A DNA stretch of 64,000 nucleotides from positions 313 through 64,312 of the forward strand of contig DJVR01000064.1 of NCBI GenBank assembly GCA_002441285.1, read 5' to 3'. This document shows, piece after piece, positions 6,586 to 28,959 of the stretch. The notes under the pieces were generated by a model. The model did no database searches. It was not told the origin of the DNA and saw only the letters and a program-made list of their open reading frames with translations. The position numbers and the translations under genes are program-made. Numbering within the stretch: position 1 is the stretch's first letter; every line of letters starts with the position of its first letter. This DNA is from Candidatus Atribacteria bacterium UBA6251 (GTDB taxonomy: Bacteria; Atribacterota; Phoenicimicrobiia; Phoenicimicrobiales; Phoenicimicrobiaceae).

Positions 6586-7014
6586 ATGCAAATAAAATTA
6601 TCTATTCGGGAAATTGTAGATCTCTTACCCCATCGTTATCCTTTCTTGTTGGTAGATAAGATTATAGAACAAGAAAAGGATAAGATAGTGGGATTAAAAA
6701 ATGTAAGTAGTAATGAACCTTTTTTTTCAGGACATTTTCCGGGGTATCCAGTTATGCCGGGGGTACTGATTATTGAAGCTATGGCTCAGGTGGCTGGAGT
6801 ATTAATGTTTTCCCGGGAGGAAAATAAGGGAAGGATTCCTCTTTTAGTGGGCATCGATAATGCTCGCTTTAAGAAACAGGTCTTTCCGGGAGATCAATTA
6901 ATTCTGAAAGTTGAAATTATTAAGCAAGTAAAAGGTGTTGGTAAGGCTCGAGCAGAAGCTTTTGTAGATCAAACTTTGGTCGCCTCTGCCAATCTTATGT
7001 TTACTACTATGTAA
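6586..7014 (+). CDS. fabZ: 3-hydroxyacyl-ACP dehydratase FabZ
   Basis: Canonical hot-dog motifs: LPHRYPFLLVD and GHFPGYPVMPGVLIIEAMAQ. Confidence 0.95.
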   Translation: MQIKLSIREIVDLLPHRYPFLLVDKIIEQEKDKIVGLKNVSSNEPFFSGHFPGYPVMPGVLIIEAMAQVAGVLMFSREENKGRIPLLVGIDNARFKKQVFPGDQLILKVEIIKQVKGVGKARAEAFVDQTLVASANLMFTTM

Positions 7015-7043
7015 AAAAAAGTGCCAGGCACCTTTTTTTACAT
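7009..7043. repeat. Family A palindrome copy 1 (ATGTAAAAAAAAGTGCCAGGCACcTTTTTTTACAT), terminator-like
   Basis: 35-nt palindrome centred on 7026 with one mismatch. It contains the fabZ stop codon (7012-7014). Nearly identical copies sit at 17815, 18450 and 21963. Confidence 0.9.
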
Positions 7044-11360: not shown

Positions 11361-11409
11361 TTAACTAACTAATTAACTAACTAACCAGTTAACCATTTAA
11401 CTAACTAAC
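11361..11409. repeat. Octamer-periodic tract (CTAACTAA-like units x6)
   Basis: ttaactaa|ctaattaa|ctaactaa|ccagttaa|ccatttaa|ctaactaa, ending just before the RBS aaaggtgg. The complementary-type words (ttagttac ttggttag ...) lie at about 11201-11260. Confidence 0.8.
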
Positions 11410-11428
11410 AAAAAGGTGGTGGCTATAA

Positions 11429-12361
11429 ATGATATTTAAAAAATCATTTGCTCTTCTTTTGGTAATTATTTTTATCTTTACTTCAGTTTTAGCTAATTTT
11501 TCTTGGGCTGCTGAGGTATCTCAGAAGGCCTTGTTGGCAGATTTATCCCAGATAGAAAAGACTATCTATGGTACAATTTCTACTCAGCCTCTAGTCGAAC
11601 GAGTAGAATACTTAGAAAAAGAAATGGTAGGACGCACTCTTCCCGGAACTATTACCAATAGAGTTAAACAATTGAAAGATTTCGTTATTACTGGCACAAT
11701 GGAAGAACCTTCACTTATCTTCAAAATCAATACTTCCCAGTGGACTCTGGATAACCAGATTTCTAATCAACCTTTAATTACCAAGATTGAAAATTTAGAA
11801 AATTTATTATTTGGTAAAACCTCTGAAGATGTCCTAGCTATGAGAGCAGAAGCAATCTTTAGTCTTTGTTTCAAAGAAGGAAAACCACAATTTACCGAAG
11901 TCATTCTTCCGGCTGGGACCTTAATATTAATCAAGTTCCTTAATCAAGTAAGTTCAAATAAGAGCGAGGAAGGAGAAACTTTTAATTTCCAAGTGGCAGA
12001 AAATATTTTCATAGAAGAAAAACTGGTTATTCCAGCCAATACCCAGGGGGTCGGGAAGGTTTCGGAAGCCAAAAAAGCTACTTTATTGGCTCGTCCGGGG
12101 AAATTGACTCTGGAATTTGAAAAGATTTCTGCATTAGATGGTACTCCCTTACAATTAGTGTTAGGGGAGGAAGCCAAAGAAGAGAATAAAAGGATAGCAG
12201 TAGCAGTAGGAGTGGGTGTTTTGGGTTTAATTATCTTAAGTAATCCAGTGGGCTTAATTGCTGGAGCATTAGTTCCTGGTAAGAATGTGAAGATTGAGGA
12301 AGGGACTGAAATGTTCCTGCAAATTGAACAGGATACCCCAGTTATTGCCTTAGTGCCATAA
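11429..12361 (+). CDS. Hypothetical secreted/membrane protein with a glycine-zipper-like TM segment
   Basis: Signal peptide (FSWAAEV). The C-terminal region carries AVAVGVGVLGLIILSNPVGLIAGALVPG. No family recognised. Confidence 0.55.
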   Translation: MIFKKSFALLLVIIFIFTSVLANFSWAAEVSQKALLADLSQIEKTIYGTISTQPLVERVEYLEKEMVGRTLPGTITNRVKQLKDFVITGTMEEPSLIFKINTSQWTLDNQISNQPLITKIENLENLLFGKTSEDVLAMRAEAIFSLCFKEGKPQFTEVILPAGTLILIKFLNQVSSNKSEEGETFNFQVAENIFIEEKLVIPANTQGVGKVSEAKKATLLARPGKLTLEFEKISALDGTPLQLVLGEEAKEENKRIAVAVGVGVLGLIILSNPVGLIAGALVPGKNVKIEEGTEMFLQIEQDTPVIALVP

Positions 12362-12370
12362 TAAAAGAAT

Positions 12371-12442
12371 AAAAGAGGAAAGTCTACTTTTATATAATGC
12401 ATAAAAGTAATATAAGCACATAAAAGTATTCTGTCCCCTTTT
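12371..12442. repeat. Family B inverted-repeat element copy 1 (arms AAAAGAGGAAAGTCTACTTTTA / TAAAAGTATTCTGTCCCCTTTT)
   Basis: Fills the gap between the convergent stop codons at 12361 and 12453. Arms match the family consensus AAAAGGGGACAGGCTACTTTT. Confidence 0.8.
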
Positions 12443-12452
12443 ATTCTCCCAA

Positions 12453-13688
12453 TTAATATTCTACAATGGTGAAAGTTGAATCAGTAGGGTAAACTTGGAC
12501 TTCCTGGGTAATATCAATACTGGTTAATAGATTATCCAATTCTGTAACCCAGTTTTTTATATAGAGATAGGCTTCCTGCAAGCTGACCCTGGTATCCAGA
12601 TTAGTATCCGCTGGGTAACTACCAGAGTAACCGCAACCCTCACATAAAGCCATAGAAAAGACTGCGAAAGGATCGAAGGTTTCTGGTATTATTGGAGAAA
12701 TTTCCATACATTGTTGGTAGTAATGACAGGAAGTTAAGACTTGGTATTGATTTGTGGTAAGTAATCCTTTAGATGGAGCTTGATGAAAAACCTTAATGAG
12801 CTCATTATTAAATGAGTACAATTCTTCTTGAAGTTTTTTTATTTCCTGATATTTTTTACCGATAAAACCTCCAGAATGGCAGGCATCAATAAAGACTACT
12901 TTTATTCCTGGGATAGCGCTTAAAGCATTTTCTAATTCATTTACACTTATAGCTGTATTTACAAAAAAAGTCATATCCGCGGGACAAAGATAAGAAGTGT
13001 TTTTTAATAGCATTCCGTGTCCGCTAAAATAAAAATAGGAAATATCATTATTATCTGCACCTAAAAAACAGGAAGTAATATTCTGCAGGATATTTGATTT
13101 GGTAGCTTGCCAGTCCTTTAAATACCAAATATTAGAAAATAAAGTGTTTGAAGAACCAAAACTGCATTTACTAAGAATATAACACATTCTATCCACATCA
13201 TAAGGCGGGGAAGATAAGTCATTATCACTACCCCAAATATAATTACCTACTCCCACACAAAGAGCTCGATATACTACTTCATTTTGAGTGACAGCAACTG
13301 CCATTGTATCCGATTTGCTTATATTTCCTTCTGTGTAAGTGACTAAGATAATAGTTGTTCCTACTGATATTCCAGTAATTAATCCGTTTGAGTCAACACT
13401 GGTACAATCAGGGTTAGCACTGGAAAAAATACAATTGTTAAGCTTTATGTCTGCTGAGCTAAAATCAGAATAATAAGCAGTCACTGAGGTAATGTATTTT
13501 GATTCTCCCACCTTTAATTCTATAGTCTCAGGTTGAATCTCTATTTTAGTAAGGTAAGGGAGTAAAGTAGTGGAATTAGATGGATTAGGAGGATAGAGAT
13601 ATCTCCAGCAACCGACAAAACATATTAAAAAAGCCAGTAGAAAGAAAAAAATTAATAAATTTTGATTAAAGAATCTTTGTTTATACAT
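12453..13688 (-). CDS. Secreted caspase-family (peptidase C14) protein with N-terminal Big_2-like Ig domain
   Basis: Catalytic motifs YFYFSGHGMLL (His) and VVFIDACHSGGF (Cys). The N-terminal hydrophobic segment ends FVGC (lipobox-like). Big_2-like segment: IEIQPETIELKVGESKYITSVTAYY...GTTIILVTY. Confidence 0.85.
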   Translation of the reverse strand: MYKQRFFNQNLLIFFFLLAFLICFVGCWRYLYPPNPSNSTTLLPYLTKIEIQPETIELKVGESKYITSVTAYYSDFSSADIKLNNCIFSSANPDCTSVDSNGLITGISVGTTIILVTYTEGNISKSDTMAVAVTQNEVVYRALCVGVGNYIWGSDNDLSSPPYDVDRMCYILSKCSFGSSNTLFSNIWYLKDWQATKSNILQNITSCFLGADNNDISYFYFSGHGMLLKNTSYLCPADMTFFVNTAISVNELENALSAIPGIKVVFIDACHSGGFIGKKYQEIKKLQEELYSFNNELIKVFHQAPSKGLLTTNQYQVLTSCHYYQQCMEISPIIPETFDPFAVFSMALCEGCGYSGSYPADTNLDTRVSLQEAYLYIKNWVTELDNLLTSIDITQEVQVYPTDSTFTIVEY

Positions 13689-13791
13689 AACAAAAACTTC
13701 TAAATAAAGAATAAAGATAGTCTTTATACTATATATAATTATTCGATAAGGTTAAAAAAATCTTTTTACCTAAAAATTATTTATTTGATTA

Positions 13792-13852
13792 AAAAAGGGA
13801 CTGTTTACTTCTAAACTGAGATATAGTATAAAAGTAGCCTGTCCCCTTTAAA
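13792..13852. repeat. Family B inverted-repeat element copy 2
   Basis: Arms AAAAAGGGACTGTTTACTT and AAAAGTAGCCTGTCCCCTTTAAA. Lies downstream of the minus-strand lipoprotein gene and upstream of the caspase gene. Confidence 0.75.
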
Positions 13853-13887
13853 TAATTTTCATTATTAGATCCAGATTAAGTTAAAGA

Positions 13888-14208
13888 TTAAGGATAAAGA
13901 TACACATAGTTTACTCCAGCATGAATATATCTTGTGACATAATAATAGCCCCACCAATAACCATCGACATCAATTGCTTCAAAGAAGTGATTTCCTATTG
14001 GAACATTATATAAGACATAAGTCCCTGGTGCAACTCCCGAGAACTTTTGAGTGTAATCCATCCAAATGTTATAATACCAGGAACCTGATACCACTATATA
14101 AACTGTTCCTGTAGTCGGATAAGTTGGTACACATCCTGTAAATGCGAGTGACAAAAATGCAATTACTACTAATACCAGAATACCTTTTACTAAAACATTC
14201 TTTTTCAT
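13888..14208 (-). CDS. Small Tyr/Trp-rich lipoprotein (PEGA-like beta-sandwich?)
   Basis: Lipobox LAFTGC. 106 aa and very aromatic-rich (GYWWGYYYVTRYIHAGVNYVYLYP). Strong RBS (gaggaggtg on the minus strand). Confidence 0.7.
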   Translation of the reverse strand: MKKNVLVKGILVLVVIAFLSLAFTGCVPTYPTTGTVYIVVSGSWYYNIWMDYTQKFSGVAPGTYVLYNVPIGNHFFEAIDVDGYWWGYYYVTRYIHAGVNYVYLYP

Positions 14209-14513
14209 TAAAATTCACCTCCTCTCGGATCTTTATTAGTATTATACAGTATCTTCCTAAAAAAATCCTCTTTTTTGTGAAAAATATTTCGATTTCCCCT
14301 ACAAAATTAGAATCAAATATGGTTTTCCCAAGAATACTATCCAGGTTTTTAATAAAGTACTTAATTTTTAAGTGTTTAGACTTTATAGTTATAATATGTT
14401 ATATTATTATAAGTGATTTATTATATTAAATTTTTTACCATAAACAGAATTTTCAACTAAATAACAAAAGAACCAACTAACTAATTAACCAAAAAAGGAG
14501 TCCTCATAAATAA

Positions 14514-15746
14514 ATGCATAGTAAAAATATTTTAATTTTTTCCCTTATCTGTCTATTAATATTATCTATCAATCTAACTGGCTGTTATTTATTCCCTCCC
14601 TCTAATCTCCCTGAATGGACGGTAATGGTCTATCTTGATGCTGATAATGATTTAGAAAGTTATGGGATTAAGGATATCAATGAAATGGAAATGGTCGGTT
14701 CTAGTTCCCAGGTAAATATATTGGTACAAATAGACCGTATTCCTTATAATGTATTAAATTCTCTCTATATAGGGTATCTGGATGATTTTTCTAACAGCAA
14801 CTGGTCTACTACCCGTAGATATTATATTACTCAAGATATGGACCTCAATCTGATAAATTCCCCCTTACTGGCTGATTTAGGCGAATTAAATATGGGAGAT
14901 CCTCAAACCTTGATTGACTTTGTTAGTTGGGCAATTACTAACTATCCAGCCAGGAAGTATTTGCTGGTACTCTGGAATCATGGTGGTGGATTTAGGAGTG
15001 TATCTTTTACTACTAAAGATATTTGCTGGGATTATAGTAACGGTTTGGATAAAATTACTATGCCAGAATTGGCGGATGCTCTTTCAGTAATTAGCAGTCA
15101 GGCTGCTGGGAAAATAGATATATTAGGGATGGATGCCTGTCTTATGGCTATGACGGAAGTTGCTTATCAGGTGAAAGACTTTACCGAAATTATGGTAACT
15201 TCCCAGGAATATGTACCAGCTGAGGGCTGGCCTTATGAGGCTATTTTAGCTGAACTAATTGCCAATCCATCTATGTCTAAAGAAGAACTAGCTACTCAAA
15301 TTGTAGATAAATATATTTTATCTTATCCTTTTAAAAATGTTACCTGTTCAGCAACTGATTTAAGTCAGATGGATATTTTAGCTGGAGAAGTATCTGCACT
15401 GGCTCAAGCGGTAATAGCTGATAATTCTACTTCGAAAAATATATATTTACAATGTGGCCAGCAAAGTCAGTATTTTTCTGATCCTGATTTTGTAGATTTA
15501 TATGATCTTTGTCAACAGTTTTTAAATTATTCTAATAATATAGAGGTAAAAAATATAGCCACCAGCATTCAGCAGACTTTAAATTATGCACGCCTTAAAT
15601 CTGTAAATAATGGGGGAGCACTAAAAGATGCCAATGGTCTTTCCATCTATTTCCCCTGGTATCGTGGTTATTCCAGTTATTATAATTTAACTGATTTTGC
15701 TCAGGATACTACCTGGGATGAAATGCTTTTACATTTAGGGCTTTAA
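14514..15746 (+). CDS. Clostripain-family (peptidase C11) lipoprotein
   Basis: Lipobox LTGC, WTVMVYLDADNDLE, and the catalytic His/Cys context LVLWNHGGGF and LGMDACLMAMTEVAYQ. Confidence 0.85.
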   Translation: MHSKNILIFSLICLLILSINLTGCYLFPPSNLPEWTVMVYLDADNDLESYGIKDINEMEMVGSSSQVNILVQIDRIPYNVLNSLYIGYLDDFSNSNWSTTRRYYITQDMDLNLINSPLLADLGELNMGDPQTLIDFVSWAITNYPARKYLLVLWNHGGGFRSVSFTTKDICWDYSNGLDKITMPELADALSVISSQAAGKIDILGMDACLMAMTEVAYQVKDFTEIMVTSQEYVPAEGWPYEAILAELIANPSMSKEELATQIVDKYILSYPFKNVTCSATDLSQMDILAGEVSALAQAVIADNSTSKNIYLQCGQQSQYFSDPDFVDLYDLCQQFLNYSNNIEVKNIATSIQQTLNYARLKSVNNGGALKDANGLSIYFPWYRGYSSYYNLTDFAQDTTWDEMLLHLGL

Positions 15747-15761
15747 TGATATTATTATAAT

Positions 15762-16355
15762 ATGCGAAGAAGTAAAAATATTTGGTTGATAATAATTTTA
15801 ATCATTTTTCTATCTATAGGGGCATATTTTTATTTTTTTTCTAACCGAGAAAAAGATAAGGAGCTAGAACAGCCAAAGGAAGAAAAAAAAGAGATAGCTG
15901 AAGAAGAGGTCATCGTTAATGAAGCCCCGGTCAGGATTGAACAGGGAAGAGTAGTGGGAATGAAAGGCGGGGTAAAAGAGTGGGAGATAGAAGCAGAAAA
16001 GATCTCTTTAGCCCAGGACAGAAAAATGACTGTTTTTGAGAAGATTAACAAGGCGATTATCTTTAGAGACAATGAGCCTTACTGGAATATTCAATTAGAG
16101 AAATGTATTGCAGATATGGGTAGTAATAATATGGAATTAATAGGCGGAGTAATCTTTGAATCAAAAGAAGGAGATATTTTAAAGGGGAATAGATTTTACT
16201 GGAATTCACAAGACCAAACCTTATCCAGCTTAGAGCCTGTGGAACTGCTAGTAGAAGATAATTGGATAATCGCAGATTGGATGAGCACTGACATAGAATT
16301 AAATATGCTCGAATTGGAGGGAAAAGTAAAGGCAGTTTTTAAAATTAAAGGATAG
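15762..16355 (+). CDS. LptC-like bitopic protein (tentative)
   Basis: 197 aa with a single N-terminal TM helix followed by a beta-rich domain. Called from size, topology and position upstream of an OstA/LptA-like gene. No diagnostic motif could be checked by eye. Confidence 0.45.
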   Translation: MRRSKNIWLIIILIIFLSIGAYFYFFSNREKDKELEQPKEEKKEIAEEEVIVNEAPVRIEQGRVVGMKGGVKEWEIEAEKISLAQDRKMTVFEKINKAIIFRDNEPYWNIQLEKCIADMGSNNMELIGGVIFESKEGDILKGNRFYWNSQDQTLSSLEPVELLVEDNWIIADWMSTDIELNMLELEGKVKAVFKIKG

Positions 16356-16385: not shown

Positions 16386-16721
16386 ATGAATAAAGAGAGA
16401 TTAAAAAAATCTATTATATCTTTATACCAAAAAATAGATCCAGAAAGAATAATTCTGTTTGGTTCTTGGTGTAAAGCAGAACAAGATCAATACAGCGATG
16501 TAGACAGGATCATAATTTATGATACTAAAAAGAGGGTTTTAGATAGATTAAAAGAGCTTTACCTTTTATGGAATATCCCCATTGCCTTTGATTTGCTTGC
16601 TTATACCCCACAAGAATTTGAAAAGATGCTGAAAGAAAAAAATCCCTTTATTGAAAGAATAAAAAAAGAAGGAGAGGTTGTCTATGAAAGACTCGGACAA
16701 GAAAGCACTTCGCTGGTTTAA
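16386..16721 (+). CDS. Nucleotidyltransferase-domain protein (MNT-type antitoxin)
   Basis: The LFGSWCKAEQDQYSDVDRIIIY motif (GS...DxD), 111 aa, overlapping the start of a HEPN remnant. Confidence 0.8.
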   Translation: MNKERLKKSIISLYQKIDPERIILFGSWCKAEQDQYSDVDRIIIYDTKKRVLDRLKELYLLWNIPIAFDLLAYTPQEFEKMLKEKNPFIERIKKEGEVVYERLGQESTSLV

Positions 16722-17108
16722 GCACTCAGAAGATGACCTTGAAATGGTAAGATGGTTGAATGTTGAATAAAGAAAAAAATTTTTTAGATAAAGGATGTTT
16801 TATAGCTCAGCAAACTGGAAAAAAACATTGAAATCCGGACTTTATACTTAAGGAGAAAGAATAGTAATAAGGCATTCTTTTAAGAATTTTTTGAAAAAAT
16901 AAGAAATGAAGTTTTAGAATTTTAGGAAATTAGGGATGAATGTAGGAGGTTAGATCGTGATTATATTCCTACCAGATATCCTAATGGTTTACCTGGTGGA
17001 ATACCTTTTCAGTATTTTATGGAAAGTGATATAAAAAGTGCTTTAAAAGATAAGGAAAAGGTTTTAAATTTTTATAGGATATTTCTCCAGAAGAAAGGAG
17101 GGTTATAA
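16684..17108 (+). pseudogene. Decayed HEPN-domain toxin gene (partner of the MNT gene)
   Basis: ATG 16684 gives MKDSDKKALRWFKHSEDDLEMVRWLNVE, then TAA at 16768. Further HEPN-like pieces lie in other frames (CFIAQQTGKK...). The C-terminal fragment LDRDYIPTRYPNGLPGG... runs 16950-17108. Confidence 0.7.
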
Positions 17109-17113
17109 ATAAA

Positions 17114-17815
17114 TTGAAAAATATTCAAAAAACCTATTTTATTAAAATTATTGTTTTGCTTTTTAGCTTATTTTTAATAGTAACTTTATCTTCAGTGGTG
17201 GTTTTGGCACAAAAAGCAGAAAGCGAAGAAGGAAAAGAGGCAACAGAAACTACAGTAAGTATAGAGGCGGATAAGGTTCTTTATGATAAGAGTATGGATA
17301 AGATGAACTTTCAAGGAAATTTAAGAATTTTGCAGGAGGATATTGTTTTAACGGCAGAGGAAGCTGAATTTGATGTGAACCAGAAGATTGGGCAGATTAA
17401 GAACAATATTAAGTTGGTGCAGAAAGATATCACCATTACTGGTGAAGCTCTGGAAGCATTTCTTAATGATAAAAGATATATCTTCCAGGGAGAAGTAAAA
17501 CTAATTCAAGAACGCAAAGATGAAGAAGGAAAAGAAGATAATATTATCTGGAATGCCCCTCAATTGGAGATTTTGGCTGATAGCAAAGATATTACTGCTA
17601 CCGGAGGAGTAAAGATTTTAAAGAAGGACTATACTATTACAGCAGAGCAGGCAGTTTATAATGATCAGGAACAGAAGATAGAACTAAAAGGAAAAGTAAA
17701 GATAGAAGAAGAGGAAAGTAATCGCTGGATCTCCGGTGATCAAGCTATCTTTTTTATCGAATCTGAAAGATTAGAAGTCACCGGCAATGTACATAGCGGC
17801 CTCAAATTAGACTAA
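17114..17815 (+). CDS. LptA/OstA-like periplasmic protein
   Basis: Signal peptide and repeated OstA-like strands (IEADKVLYDKSMDKMNFQGNLRILQEDIVLTAEEAEFD...). TTG start after the RBS aaaggaggg. Confidence 0.65.
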   Translation: MKNIQKTYFIKIIVLLFSLFLIVTLSSVVVLAQKAESEEGKEATETTVSIEADKVLYDKSMDKMNFQGNLRILQEDIVLTAEEAEFDVNQKIGQIKNNIKLVQKDITITGEALEAFLNDKRYIFQGEVKLIQERKDEEGKEDNIIWNAPQLEILADSKDITATGGVKILKKDYTITAEQAVYNDQEQKIELKGKVKIEEEESNRWISGDQAIFFIESERLEVTGNVHSGLKLD

Positions 17816-17849
17816 TGTAAAAAAAAGTGCCAGGCACTTTTTTTTACAT
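17815..17849. repeat. Family A palindrome copy 2 (perfect)
   Basis: ATGTAAAAAAAAGTGCCAGGCACTTTTTTTTACAT, starting at the last base of the preceding stop codon. Confidence 0.9.
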
Positions 17850-18449: not shown

Positions 18450-18484
18450 ATGTAAAAAAAAGTGCCAGGCACTTTTTTTTACAT
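18450..18484. repeat. Family A palindrome copy 3 (perfect), bidirectional terminator position
   Basis: Fills almost exactly the 37-nt gap between the convergent stop codons at 18447 and 18485. Confidence 0.9.
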
Positions 18485-21962: not shown

Positions 21963-21997
21963 ATGTAAAAAAAAGTGCCAGGCACTTTTTTTTACAT
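21963..21997. repeat. Family A palindrome copy 4 (perfect), in a divergent intergenic region
   Basis: Same 35-mer, lying between the starts of lptF/G (21891, minus) and the TPR gene (22063, plus). Confidence 0.9.
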
Positions 21998-28053: not shown

Positions 28054-28959
28054 ATGAAGAAACTATTCTTGTTGTTATTAGTTGTAGCCTTAGCCGCCTT
28101 CTTATTTGTCGGCTGTATTCCTGTAACTCCCGGAGAAGGTGAAGGAGAAGGTGAAGGAGAATTAGAAGTAACTATAACATTTGAGAATGAATATACTGAT
28201 GCTAAGGGGGTAACCTTTATACCATGTTCTGGCGAGGTAACAGTTACTTTATCGGCTCCTGTAGCTGTAGATAATGTCGTATATGTTGCATTGAAAGAAG
28301 ATGATGGAGACTATGATTGTTCTGAACCACTTACTCCTAATGCCGATCGGACAGTCTGGACTGGAGATTATACTCCAAACATATGCTCTCCTAGCATTGA
28401 TGAGTGCGAACCGTTCTGTGTAGTCGCCCTAGTCAAACATCCCTGCTGCCCCGGTGAAGAGGTTGCCCTAAAAGTAGTGAGAGCGGATTGCACACCACCT
28501 ACACTTGACCTTTTTGTTAAATTTTCAGATTGTACTGATCCTTGCGTAGATCCAGACCCTTGTGTCGAACCATTTGCGGGTGTATCTATGGAATGGACTA
28601 GCAGAACTACCAGTCTCTGCGAGACTACCGATTGTTGTGCAGATAACTGTTCCGGAGTTGGTGGCTGGAGCCTGGTGATAGATCCAGATGAGTGTGAAGG
28701 CCCATGTGATACTGTAGAAGGAACTGGTTGTCATGTAGAAGGAGAATTAGGGTGTGAATGTTTTGCCTATGCTGACACAGGTGAAGTCTGCTACATCATT
28801 GAATTCACTCTCGAAGATAATGTAGGAAATGCAGTTGAAAGCAAGTGGGAACTTTGCTTAGATACCGATTCCGTGGTTTCATTCTCTATAGTCGATGGAG
28901 ACACATTAACTGCAGATTCTGAAGGTTGGTACACAGTTTACAATGATTGTCAACCTTAA
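28054..28959 (+). CDS. Cysteine-rich acidic lipoprotein (24 Cys), unknown family
   Basis: Lipobox LFVGC followed by a (GE)4 linker. 23 further Cys occur in CxxxC, CC and CxC spacings (DECEPFC, HPCCPG, DCTDPCVDPDPC, DCCADNC, DECEGPC, GCEC). Visibly higher G+C and biased codons, with the strong RBS aaaggagaaag. Confidence 0.8.
   Translation: MKKLFLLLLVVALAAFLFVGCIPVTPGEGEGEGEGELEVTITFENEYTDAKGVTFIPCSGEVTVTLSAPVAVDNVVYVALKEDDGDYDCSEPLTPNADRTVWTGDYTPNICSPSIDECEPFCVVALVKHPCCPGEEVALKVVRADCTPPTLDLFVKFSDCTDPCVDPDPCVEPFAGVSMEWTSRTTSLCETTDCCADNCSGVGGWSLVIDPDECEGPCDTVEGTGCHVEGELGCECFAYADTGEVCYIIEFTLEDNVGNAVESKWELCLDTDSVVSFSIVDGDTLTADSEGWYTVYNDCQP

Follow-up and report, generated by a model that had tools for sequence, protein, structure and literature searches.

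A C11 peptidase gene linked to lpt genes across Atribacterota and an order-specific gene slot that joins it with a C14 peptidase and an orphan predicted lipoprotein

The 64,000-nucleotide stretch of DNA analyzed here, hereafter the window, covers positions 313 to 64,312 of contig DJVR01000064.1 of Candidatus Atribacteria bacterium UBA6251, and corresponds to contig 15 of a 1.7-Mb Atribacterota metagenome-assembled genome (MAG) that is 79% complete. It carries three neighboring genes for predicted lipoproteins: A, in which a Big_2 Ig-like domain precedes a C14 (caspase-family) peptidase domain; S, a small protein rich in aromatic residues; and B, a C11 (clostripain-type) peptidase (Table 1). 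An earlier description of the window, made from its letters without database searches and called here the sequence-only reading, had presented these genes as one divergent proteolytic module inside an outer-membrane biogenesis region. All three open reading frames (ORFs) are real and the motifs quoted for them are present in the translations. The setting is also confirmed, with Pfam and NCBIfam scans placing genes for an SLH porin, LptC, an LptA-like protein, an LptD-like protein, and LptB around the trio. Two findings that are new, modest but real, came from comparing this locus across the phylum: the C11 gene is linked to lpt genes in the whole of Atribacterota, and an order-specific slot joins a C14 peptidase with orphan lipoproteins that are nearly free of Lys and Arg.

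By its sequence, B is a bona fide member of the C11 family. It matches Peptidase_C11 (PF03415) from position 1 to 356 of the 359-position profile with an E value of 3.9e-61 (208 bits against a cutoff of 25.8), and it aligns with clostripain (PDB 9cip) at an E value of 9e-29, NHGGG falling on NHGGG and DAClM on DAClM. The His/Cys dyad lies in the motifs WNHGGG (H156) and MDACLM (C209), with D207 two residues ahead of C209. Among 17 C11 orthologs from five families of the phylum, H156 and D207-x-C209 are all conserved, as is, phylum-wide, the Cys of the lipobox (LTGC in B). B is not an ortholog of clostripain proper, reaching 113.5 bits against a cutoff of 550 with the NCBIfam equivalog TIGR02806. 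Nevertheless, clostripain of Hathewaya histolytica and the Bacteroidales C11 enzymes (PmC11, 3uws/4yec; fragipain; DpnB; the thetapain-type 6n9j) share the full-length C11 match with B, and clostripain also has in common with it the dyad, an Asp at the second position ahead of the Cys, and basic residues at the two linker-excision positions. In B the latter are R160 and K168, which flank a 7-residue linker and which our alignment places on what we take, in residue numbering, to be the two excision sites of clostripain. A basic residue is kept at each of these positions in the 17 orthologs (R/K after GG[GS][FV], K/R before D/N-I). The S1 pocket of C11 enzymes carries an Asp that accounts for their Arg/Lys specificity, and clostripain and PmC11 are restrained by their own uncleaved linker. 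We infer that B would likewise activate itself by cutting out its short linker and would then cleave after Arg or Lys. The nearest functional precedent lies in Bacteroidales, where C11 enzymes are also lipoproteins and, anchored at the surface, process secreted proteins after Arg/Lys (PMC11169675). B differs from these enzymes and from clostripain in its phylum and in the position of its gene inside an lpt operon.

Gene neighborhoods indicate that B is an old resident of this cluster, linked to lpt genes phylum-wide. The C11 gene is present in 57 of 86 phylum genomes, and it adjoins lpt genes in every family examined. In two families of one order, f1 and f2, the cluster runs lptB, a gene for 377 amino acids (aa), the SLH porin gene, the gene of a 310-aa exported protein, a slot of variable content, lptC, lptA, and a lipoprotein gene, with an lptD-like gene opposite. 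The gap between B and lptC is 15 nucleotides (nt) in the window and in five f1 relatives (G001, G003, G008, G023, and G079), and B is probably co-transcribed with lptC as its operon partner. In the outgroup families f3, f4, and f6, the C11 gene lies downstream of an lptA, lptD-like, and lipoprotein gene string, 8 nt (G070), 13 nt (G059), or 371 nt (G045) from the lipoprotein gene, and this linkage occurs without A or S. One way to explain the arrangement is that the C11 lipoprotein is a built-in component of Lpt or outer-membrane assembly, which might mature or trim either the SLH porin or the LptD-like protein, or might attach proteins to the envelope as PorU does, and that S and a second small-lipoprotein family, S2 (described below), are dedicated partners that regulate or position clan CD peptidases. 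If true, diderm envelope biogenesis would include a peptidase-plus-adaptor module not described before, but we hold this to be quite improbable. PorU and the gingipains of the type IX secretion system (T9SS) are clan CD peptidases at the outer membrane with cargo linked to lipopolysaccharide (LPS), and they resemble B in being tied to outer-membrane/LPS machinery. The likeness is by analogy only, and no T9SS genes, C-terminal sorting domains, or evidence of transpeptidation were found at these loci.

Sequence comparison identifies A as a C14 peptidase of the p20 type, predicted to be exported and built with a stalk. Pfam matches above cutoff to Big_2 (PF02368; E value of 2.3e-5, 24.7 bits against 22.8) and Peptidase_C14 (PF00656; E value of 2.4e-14, 54 bits against 21.4) place an Ig-like domain at about residues 45 to 135 and a p20 domain of the orthocaspase/metacaspase type at about residues 140 to 290, the latter with the motifs FSGHG (H224) and IDACHSG (C270). 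An alignment of 31 A homologs shows no variation at G26-C27 of the lipobox FVGC, at H224, or at D268, and conservation of 90% or more at C270. AlphaFold2 (AF2), run with these homologs, models A with a mean pLDDT of 54, and only Big_2 is confident (residues 45 to 135, all beta, pLDDT 86 to 96); Big_2-type repeats in the PDB match A at an E value of 1e-12. Toward the C terminus, the Pfam C14 match covers positions 3 to 146 of a 233-position profile, the pLDDT is below 50 for residues 269 to 411, similarity to PDB sequences stops at residue 286, and a p10-like region is not recognizable in the last 120 residues. The A profile matches the plant metacaspase AtMC4 (PDB 6w8s) at an E value of 1e-6. 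With orthocaspases and plant metacaspases (AtMC4 and AtMC9, the latter 8a53), A shares the p20-type domain and the SGHG and D-x-CHSG motifs; unlike them, it is predicted to be exported and lipid anchored and is equipped with a Big_2 stalk, to which relatives add PEGA. Both dyads that the sequence-only reading had called intact, H224/C270 in A and H156/C209 in B, are therefore conserved in homologs, and its assignment of C14 with Big_2 to the minus strand and of a C11 lipoprotein to the plus strand stands. We set aside a role for A as a defense-system caspase, since its PADLOC match is to a generic caspase only and A is predicted to be exported; with the EACC1-associated caspase type (NF047832), A stays below cutoff (38.5 against 140 bits).

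S is best described, from its structural model and distribution, as an orphan family of PEGA/transthyretin-like lipoproteins confined to one order. Its lipobox residues G25-C26 are invariant in 26 homologs. S has no Pfam family at an E value of 10 or lower and nothing meaningful in NCBIfam or PADLOC, its sole match among PDB sequences at an E value of 10 or lower is FliQ, made through the signal peptide, and by eye its leader has no similarity to that of a Cys-rich lipoprotein encoded at position 28054. Sequence matches to S number 162 among 5.8 billion proteins, all of them named as Atribacterota or without a name, and an exhaustive profile search returned 84 among 1.84 billion representative proteins, the most distant of which include long proteins of PEGA, DUF2846, or CarboxypepD_reg repeats. 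The database names attached to S and A homologs are Atribacterota or Caldatribacteriota. A profile scan of genome contigs, using a narrow pattern search, gave five loci, all but one from Atribacterota. One S homolog, 68% identical, sits on a 3.2-kb contig (L032, DFBO01000183.1) binned in a Flavobacteriaceae MAG and is probably from a mis-binned member of Atribacterota.

With 26 homologs, AF2 models S at a pLDDT of 91 as a 7-strand beta-sandwich, a single compact domain with no pro-region. Foldseek comparison of this model with the PDB yields weak, generic matches to small sandwiches, the best being 6hif_Y (E value of 1.4e-3, TM of 0.5), and the list includes CnaB and the transthyretin-like domains of carboxypeptidases N and D. 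With the PEGA, DUF2846, and CarboxypepD_reg modules S may share the 7-strand sandwich in which it is modeled, and by our own reading of the sequences it shares a pattern of the form G-x-H-x-hydrophobic ... G-Y. S differs from them in having no profile match and in being far more aromatic.

As to composition, the earlier description of a small aromatic lipoprotein was accurate. Tyr, Trp, and Phe make up 27.5% of the mature protein of the window and Lys plus Arg 2.5%, and the means of the mature family are 23.6% and 1.2% (range of Lys plus Arg, 0 to 3.7%). For comparison, the window ORFs (n = 45) hold 11.3% aromatic residues and 10.8 ± 3.5% Lys plus Arg, and mature A and B hold 11.9 to 12.5% aromatic residues and 5.2 to 5.5% Lys plus Arg. 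The S protein of the window has one Lys (K55) and one Arg (R92), neither of them conserved, and the family has no conserved basic residue at all. Because S is nearly without Lys and Arg, whereas C11 enzymes, with Asp in the S1 pocket, and C14 enzymes of the metacaspase type cut after basic residues, S would be a very poor substrate for A or B. On these grounds of sequence, a role for S as a substrate of the neighboring peptidases, which the sequence-only reading had offered as one option, is unlikely. In its fuller form, this explanation takes S for a substrate or pro-protein matured by A or B, like the toxins, encoded nearby or elsewhere, that Bacteroides surface C11 lipoproteins activate, and it can point to Bacteroidales enzymes such as fragipain and DpnB, which activate secreted proteins by cutting after Arg/Lys (PMC11169675). 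A mature family with so few basic residues, K55 and R92 not being conserved, and a single compact domain lacking a pro-region make it the least credible of the explanations that we considered, with very little chance of being right.

Relatives of the trio suggest that a PEGA-type sandwich close to the membrane is a recurrent companion of C14 peptidases. Many A homologs are composed of a lipobox, a canonical PEGA domain, Big_2, and C14, with PEGA lying between the lipid anchor and Big_2. The f2 genomes encode a second C14 paralog of 376 to 382 aa that lacks Big_2 and in which an apparent N-terminal PEGA domain, assigned by reading the N-terminal sequences and not by a hidden Markov model (HMM) match, is fused straight to C14. 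Three of the four copies examined have a lipobox, and the gene always adjoins an mntP-like gene, near plsX, without a separate small-lipoprotein gene. A split-off origin of S from such a PEGA domain, by fusion or fission, was considered and rejected, since relatives with a PEGA-fused A keep S 35 nt upstream and hhalign finds no homology between S and PEGA.

The second family of small lipoproteins, S2, in which P0327 is 49% identical to P0121, lies beside the slot C11 gene in five genomes (L050, G077, G014, G023, and G034). In family f3 it is also found upstream of a C11 paralog that is not linked to lpt genes, at 47 nt from ORF to ORF in G045 and, measured between the coordinates of the matches, at 240 to 290 nt in G041, G042, and G044. 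A cluster of three small-lipoprotein genes of about 110 to 116 aa (S2, P0122-like, and P0123-like) is common to f3 and f6, and the C11 paralog stands beside S2 only in f3. The juxtaposition of S2 and C11 arose at least twice and is not universal. P0121 to P0123 of G045 were also tried as S homologs, but hhalign probabilities of 70 to 74% for two of them, driven in part by the signal peptide, are insufficient for homology. The gene order of G045 matches that of Atribacter laminatus RT761 (RT761_02136 to RT761_02141), in whose transcriptome S2 and two neighboring small-lipoprotein genes rank 103 to 155 among the listed genes, with the "Clostripain" gene next to them at rank 425 (PMC7736352, supplementary file 5). 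At ranks 103 to 155, such lipoproteins are abundant messages in RT761, which fits a structural role or one in stoichiometric excess. RT761_00907, a lipoprotein gene among the 10 most highly expressed in A. laminatus, was rejected as part of the system; its product has about 283 aa, as calculated from reads and RPKM (reads per kilobase per million), and by position the gene is some 30 kb away from the lpt-C11 locus.

To place the trio within its order, we searched for each of the three proteins in 40 relatives from f1 and f2 and then excised over 25 loci for annotation. The co-occurrence implied by the sequence-only reading is found in relatives, with all three genes on one contig in 7 of 41 genomes (the window genome, G000, and the 40 relatives). 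S is detected in 26 genomes and, apart from G017, G026, and G040, lies on the same contig beside A, B, or slot-flanking genes. Collinearity extends over all 15 kb of the region in this order, and only the slot content varies, from one to four S genes, some of them tandem fusions, with or without A, with or without B, and with or without S2. The 310-aa protein, 49 to 72% identical among relatives, borders the slot in all f1 and f2 loci examined. Among the 13 slots assembled with both flanks, S occurs in all 13, B in 11 (absent from G037 and G025), and A in 8, and 6 slots hold A, S, and B together. Thus, S is the constant element of the slot and the peptidases are the variable ones. At locus L050 the gap between S and A is just 35 nt, and in G001, where a break interrupts the cluster at the slot, S still accompanies B.

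Across the 86 phylum genomes, 36 of the 51 that belong to the order gave a match to the S profile, whereas the 34 from the other five families yielded only two weak ones. A search of five outgroup genomes, four of them complete and in a single contig, did not find A. A and S are younger, order-specific additions to the slot. Since B is phylum-wide while A and S are restricted to the order, the "pair of clan CD peptidases" is a composite of an old C11 enzyme and a younger C14 enzyme and S. The slot itself is a plastic, assembly-breaking region, and many contigs of relatives end at it. In four f2 genomes, IS200/RAYT-like ORFs of 262 to 267 aa, starting with MPRLPRKYSETGIYHIMVRGN, are inserted at the slot or the lpt genes, either inside or next to them.

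In the window, S is co-directional with A and upstream of it, the two being separated by a 199-nt gap that contains a hairpin and a T-run, and B is divergent from S. The promoter box of S is a consensus resemblance only, and a -35 box is absent at canonical spacing. The long hairpin downstream resembles an intrinsic terminator, which would set S apart from A; the spacer between the two genes folds with z = -2.8 compared with shuffles, and a simple terminator scan overlooked the hairpin because its loop exceeds 8 nt. On the far side of A, its 3' end converges with that of the 310-aa gene at an inverted repeat that looks like a bidirectional terminator, half of which is 91% identical to an arm of the hairpin 3' of S. 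Given a Shine-Dalgarno sequence and a terminator-like hairpin belonging to S and the inverted repeat past A, the three genes look, at the level of consensus signals, like three separate transcription units, namely S, A, and B-lptC. A single divergent unit, as originally proposed, is not what we see: B belongs with lpt genes phylum-wide without A or S, and S has signals of its own. Of the proposed proteolytic module, the prediction of three envelope lipoproteins and the intact dyads of the two peptidases stand, and the single unit does not.

Table 1. Features of the window and of related loci mentioned in the text (positions are those of the window unless a locus is named)
Feature	Position	Strand	Description
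A	12453-13688	-	Big_2 + C14 predicted lipoprotein, 411 aa; ORF, Pfam, motifs
S	13888-14208	-	Predicted lipoprotein, 106 aa, mature part 80 residues; ORF, lipobox LAFTGC
B	14514-15746	+	C11 clostripain-type predicted lipoprotein, 410 aa; ORF, Pfam, motifs
lptC	15762-16355	+	TIGR04409, 58.8 bits against a cutoff of 38; starts 15 nt after B, same strand
310-aa exported protein	11429-12361	+	No Pfam family; Gly-rich C-terminal hydrophobic segment
Expression signals of S	14214-14248	-	TG + TATAAT box at 14248-14241; Shine-Dalgarno GAGGAGGTGA at 14223-14214, 5 nt ahead of ATG
Intrinsic-terminator-like hairpin	13791-13846	-	Long hairpin, then UUUUUU; starts 42 nt past the S stop
Inverted repeat	12366-12447		Arms of 28 nt with 86% complementarity; lies where the 310-aa gene and A converge at their 3' ends
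Second C14 paralog	L057 5734-6870; L058 5392-6531; L059 5464-6612; L060 5115-6245		f2
Small-lipoprotein cluster	L037 6254-10261; L054 5413-6501		f3 (G045; RT761_02137 to RT761_02141); f6 (G070)
IS200/RAYT-like ORFs	L017 6319-7122; L018 14330-15118; L026 3742-4542; L039 2005-2796		f2
Palindrome, 35 nt	7009-7043; 17815-17849; 18450-18484; 21963-21997		Perfect stem, four copies
TAAC/GTTA-type word tracts	14455-14501; 11363-11413		Spacer 5' of B; 5' of the 310-aa gene
Nucleotidyltransferase gene	16386-16721		Within 16386-17108, between lptC and lptA
Nucleotidyltransferase region with HEPN partner	L050 2441-3176		Intact 145-aa HEPN partner

We favor, tentatively and with a probability of about 0.45, a reading in which S is functionally coupled to the slot peptidases as an envelope partner or coat module. 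The trio would consist of lipid-anchored envelope proteins in a variable-content slot inside the outer-membrane biogenesis cluster of Atribacterota. B would be its resident of old, co-transcribed with lptC, self-processing, and cutting after Arg or Lys. S would be a free-standing beta-sandwich of the PEGA/transthyretin-like kind on a lipid anchor, and perhaps the unfused equivalent of the PEGA module carried by many relatives between lipid anchor and C14. Noncatalytic, resistant to proteases, and built to last beside peptidases of the Arg/Lys type, it may act in contact with them.

Several observations weigh against this coupling. S is retained in slots without A (G039, G032, G079, G075, and G084) and without B (G037 and G025), and some copies lie away from any peptidase (C26 of G031 and C249 of G083). 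S2 does not adjoin C11 in f4 and f6, about nine genomes. A low content of Lys plus Arg is also found, to a lesser degree, in other envelope proteins of the window (porin, 6.1%; Cys-rich lipoprotein, 3.7%). Furthermore, the link with PEGA is not recovered by profiles: none of 26 members of the S family matched the Pfam PEGA family (PF08308) at an E value of 1 or lower, and an hhalign comparison of S with a canonical PEGA domain, taken from the C14 protein of a relative, gave a probability of 3%. Of the Pfam families that the sequence-only reading had named, Peptidase_C14, Peptidase_C11, and Big_2 were thus recovered, and PEGA was not matched by S.

With the region collinear throughout the order, the adjacency of S, A, and B may simply be inherited synteny. 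Under that explanation, the three are independent envelope lipoprotein genes without functional link, caught in a recombination-prone slot. The run from lptB to the lptD-like gene is collinear in f1 and f2; S with B, S with A, and S alone all occur, as do S copies with no peptidase close by; the window has three separate sets of transcription signals; and IS200/RAYT-like ORFs and contig breaks mark the slot. Neighborhood conservation of the triad, expected from the sequence-only reading, is accordingly present in part, in the 6 of 13 slots that hold all three genes, and is confounded by the collinearity of the whole region and by the persistence of S with or without either peptidase. Inherited synteny accounts less well for S standing beside A or B in most S-bearing genomes despite rearrangements, as in G001, where S stays with B. 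Nor does it explain why S and A have the same order-restricted distribution, why a second small-lipoprotein family stands beside a C11 paralog away from the lpt genes in another family, or why PEGA-C14 fusions recur. We judge the absence of any functional link to be less likely than not, but a strong rival to the coupling of S with the peptidases.

Staphopain and staphostatin, the Bacteroides C10 pair Bfp and Bfi, and chagasin/ICP exemplify a small inhibitor gene beside that of an exported cysteine peptidase, and S resembles these inhibitors in being a small, beta-rich protein, sometimes a lipoprotein, encoded beside an exported cysteine peptidase. By analogy, S could be a dedicated inhibitor or chaperone that keeps clan CD peptidases silent until they are sorted, in the style of staphostatin and staphopain. 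A protein that is small, stable looking, and poor enough in Lys and Arg to be likely resistant to cleavage would suit this role, as would a gene adjoining those of the peptidases and a strong Shine-Dalgarno sequence, which suggests production in excess. However, inhibitors of the staphostatin, Bfi, and chagasin type target clan CA peptidases and are made 1:1 in one operon. S has no fold or sequence match to them, and none of the known inhibitor folds (staphostatin, chagasin/ICP) is among its 50 best PDB fold matches; it is unlike any known inhibitor family, so that the likeness is in gene arrangement only. S is found in 1 to 5 copies, some of them fused in tandem, it occurs without A, without B, or apart from both, and the signals in the window argue against 1:1 co-transcription with either peptidase. 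C11 enzymes, moreover, are already restrained by their own uncleaved linker. We consider an inhibitor or chaperone role very unlikely.

The peptidases themselves could instead serve nutrition, with A and B scavenging environmental proteins at the surface of a peptide-fermenting organism and the lpt position being irrelevant to outer-membrane biogenesis. This would suit lipoproteins that carry a variable number of adhesin-like stalk domains (Big_2 and PEGA) and that are dispensable in several near-complete relatives, such as G025, which is 98% complete and lacks B. On the other hand, the linkage of C11 to lpt genes is phylum-wide, with gaps of 8 to 15 nt in several lineages, and scavenging leaves S unexplained. 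We regard it as unlikely, and retain the envelope partner or coat module as our preferred, if tentative, reading of S.

Members of Atribacterota abound in the subsurface and have an unusual multilayered envelope (PMC7736352), about whose construction very little has been learned. The attachment of a C11 gene to lpt genes throughout the phylum is not part of textbook Lpt systems, and if the enzyme functions there, it would add a proteolytic step to outer-membrane assembly or to the maturation of surface proteins. S and the related-looking families of small lipoproteins may be major components of the envelope, the homologs of one such family being highly expressed in the sole cultured species. 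If plain synteny holds instead, the finding is an ordinary one: a lipoprotein specific to the lineage beside members of two familiar peptidase families.

Three further features of the region were noted. A palindrome of 35 nt with a perfect stem, ATGTAAAAAAAAGTGCCAGGCAC(T/C)TTTTTTTACAT, occurs in four copies at gene ends of the lpt/bam region, none of them within the slot of A, S, and B. Degenerate tracts of an 8-nt word of the TAAC/GTTA type lie in the spacer 5' of B and 5' of the gene for the 310-aa protein. Finally, the nucleotidyltransferase gene between lptC and lptA is the sole ORF of at least 60 aa in its interval in the window, and in the close relative L050 an intact HEPN partner is present.

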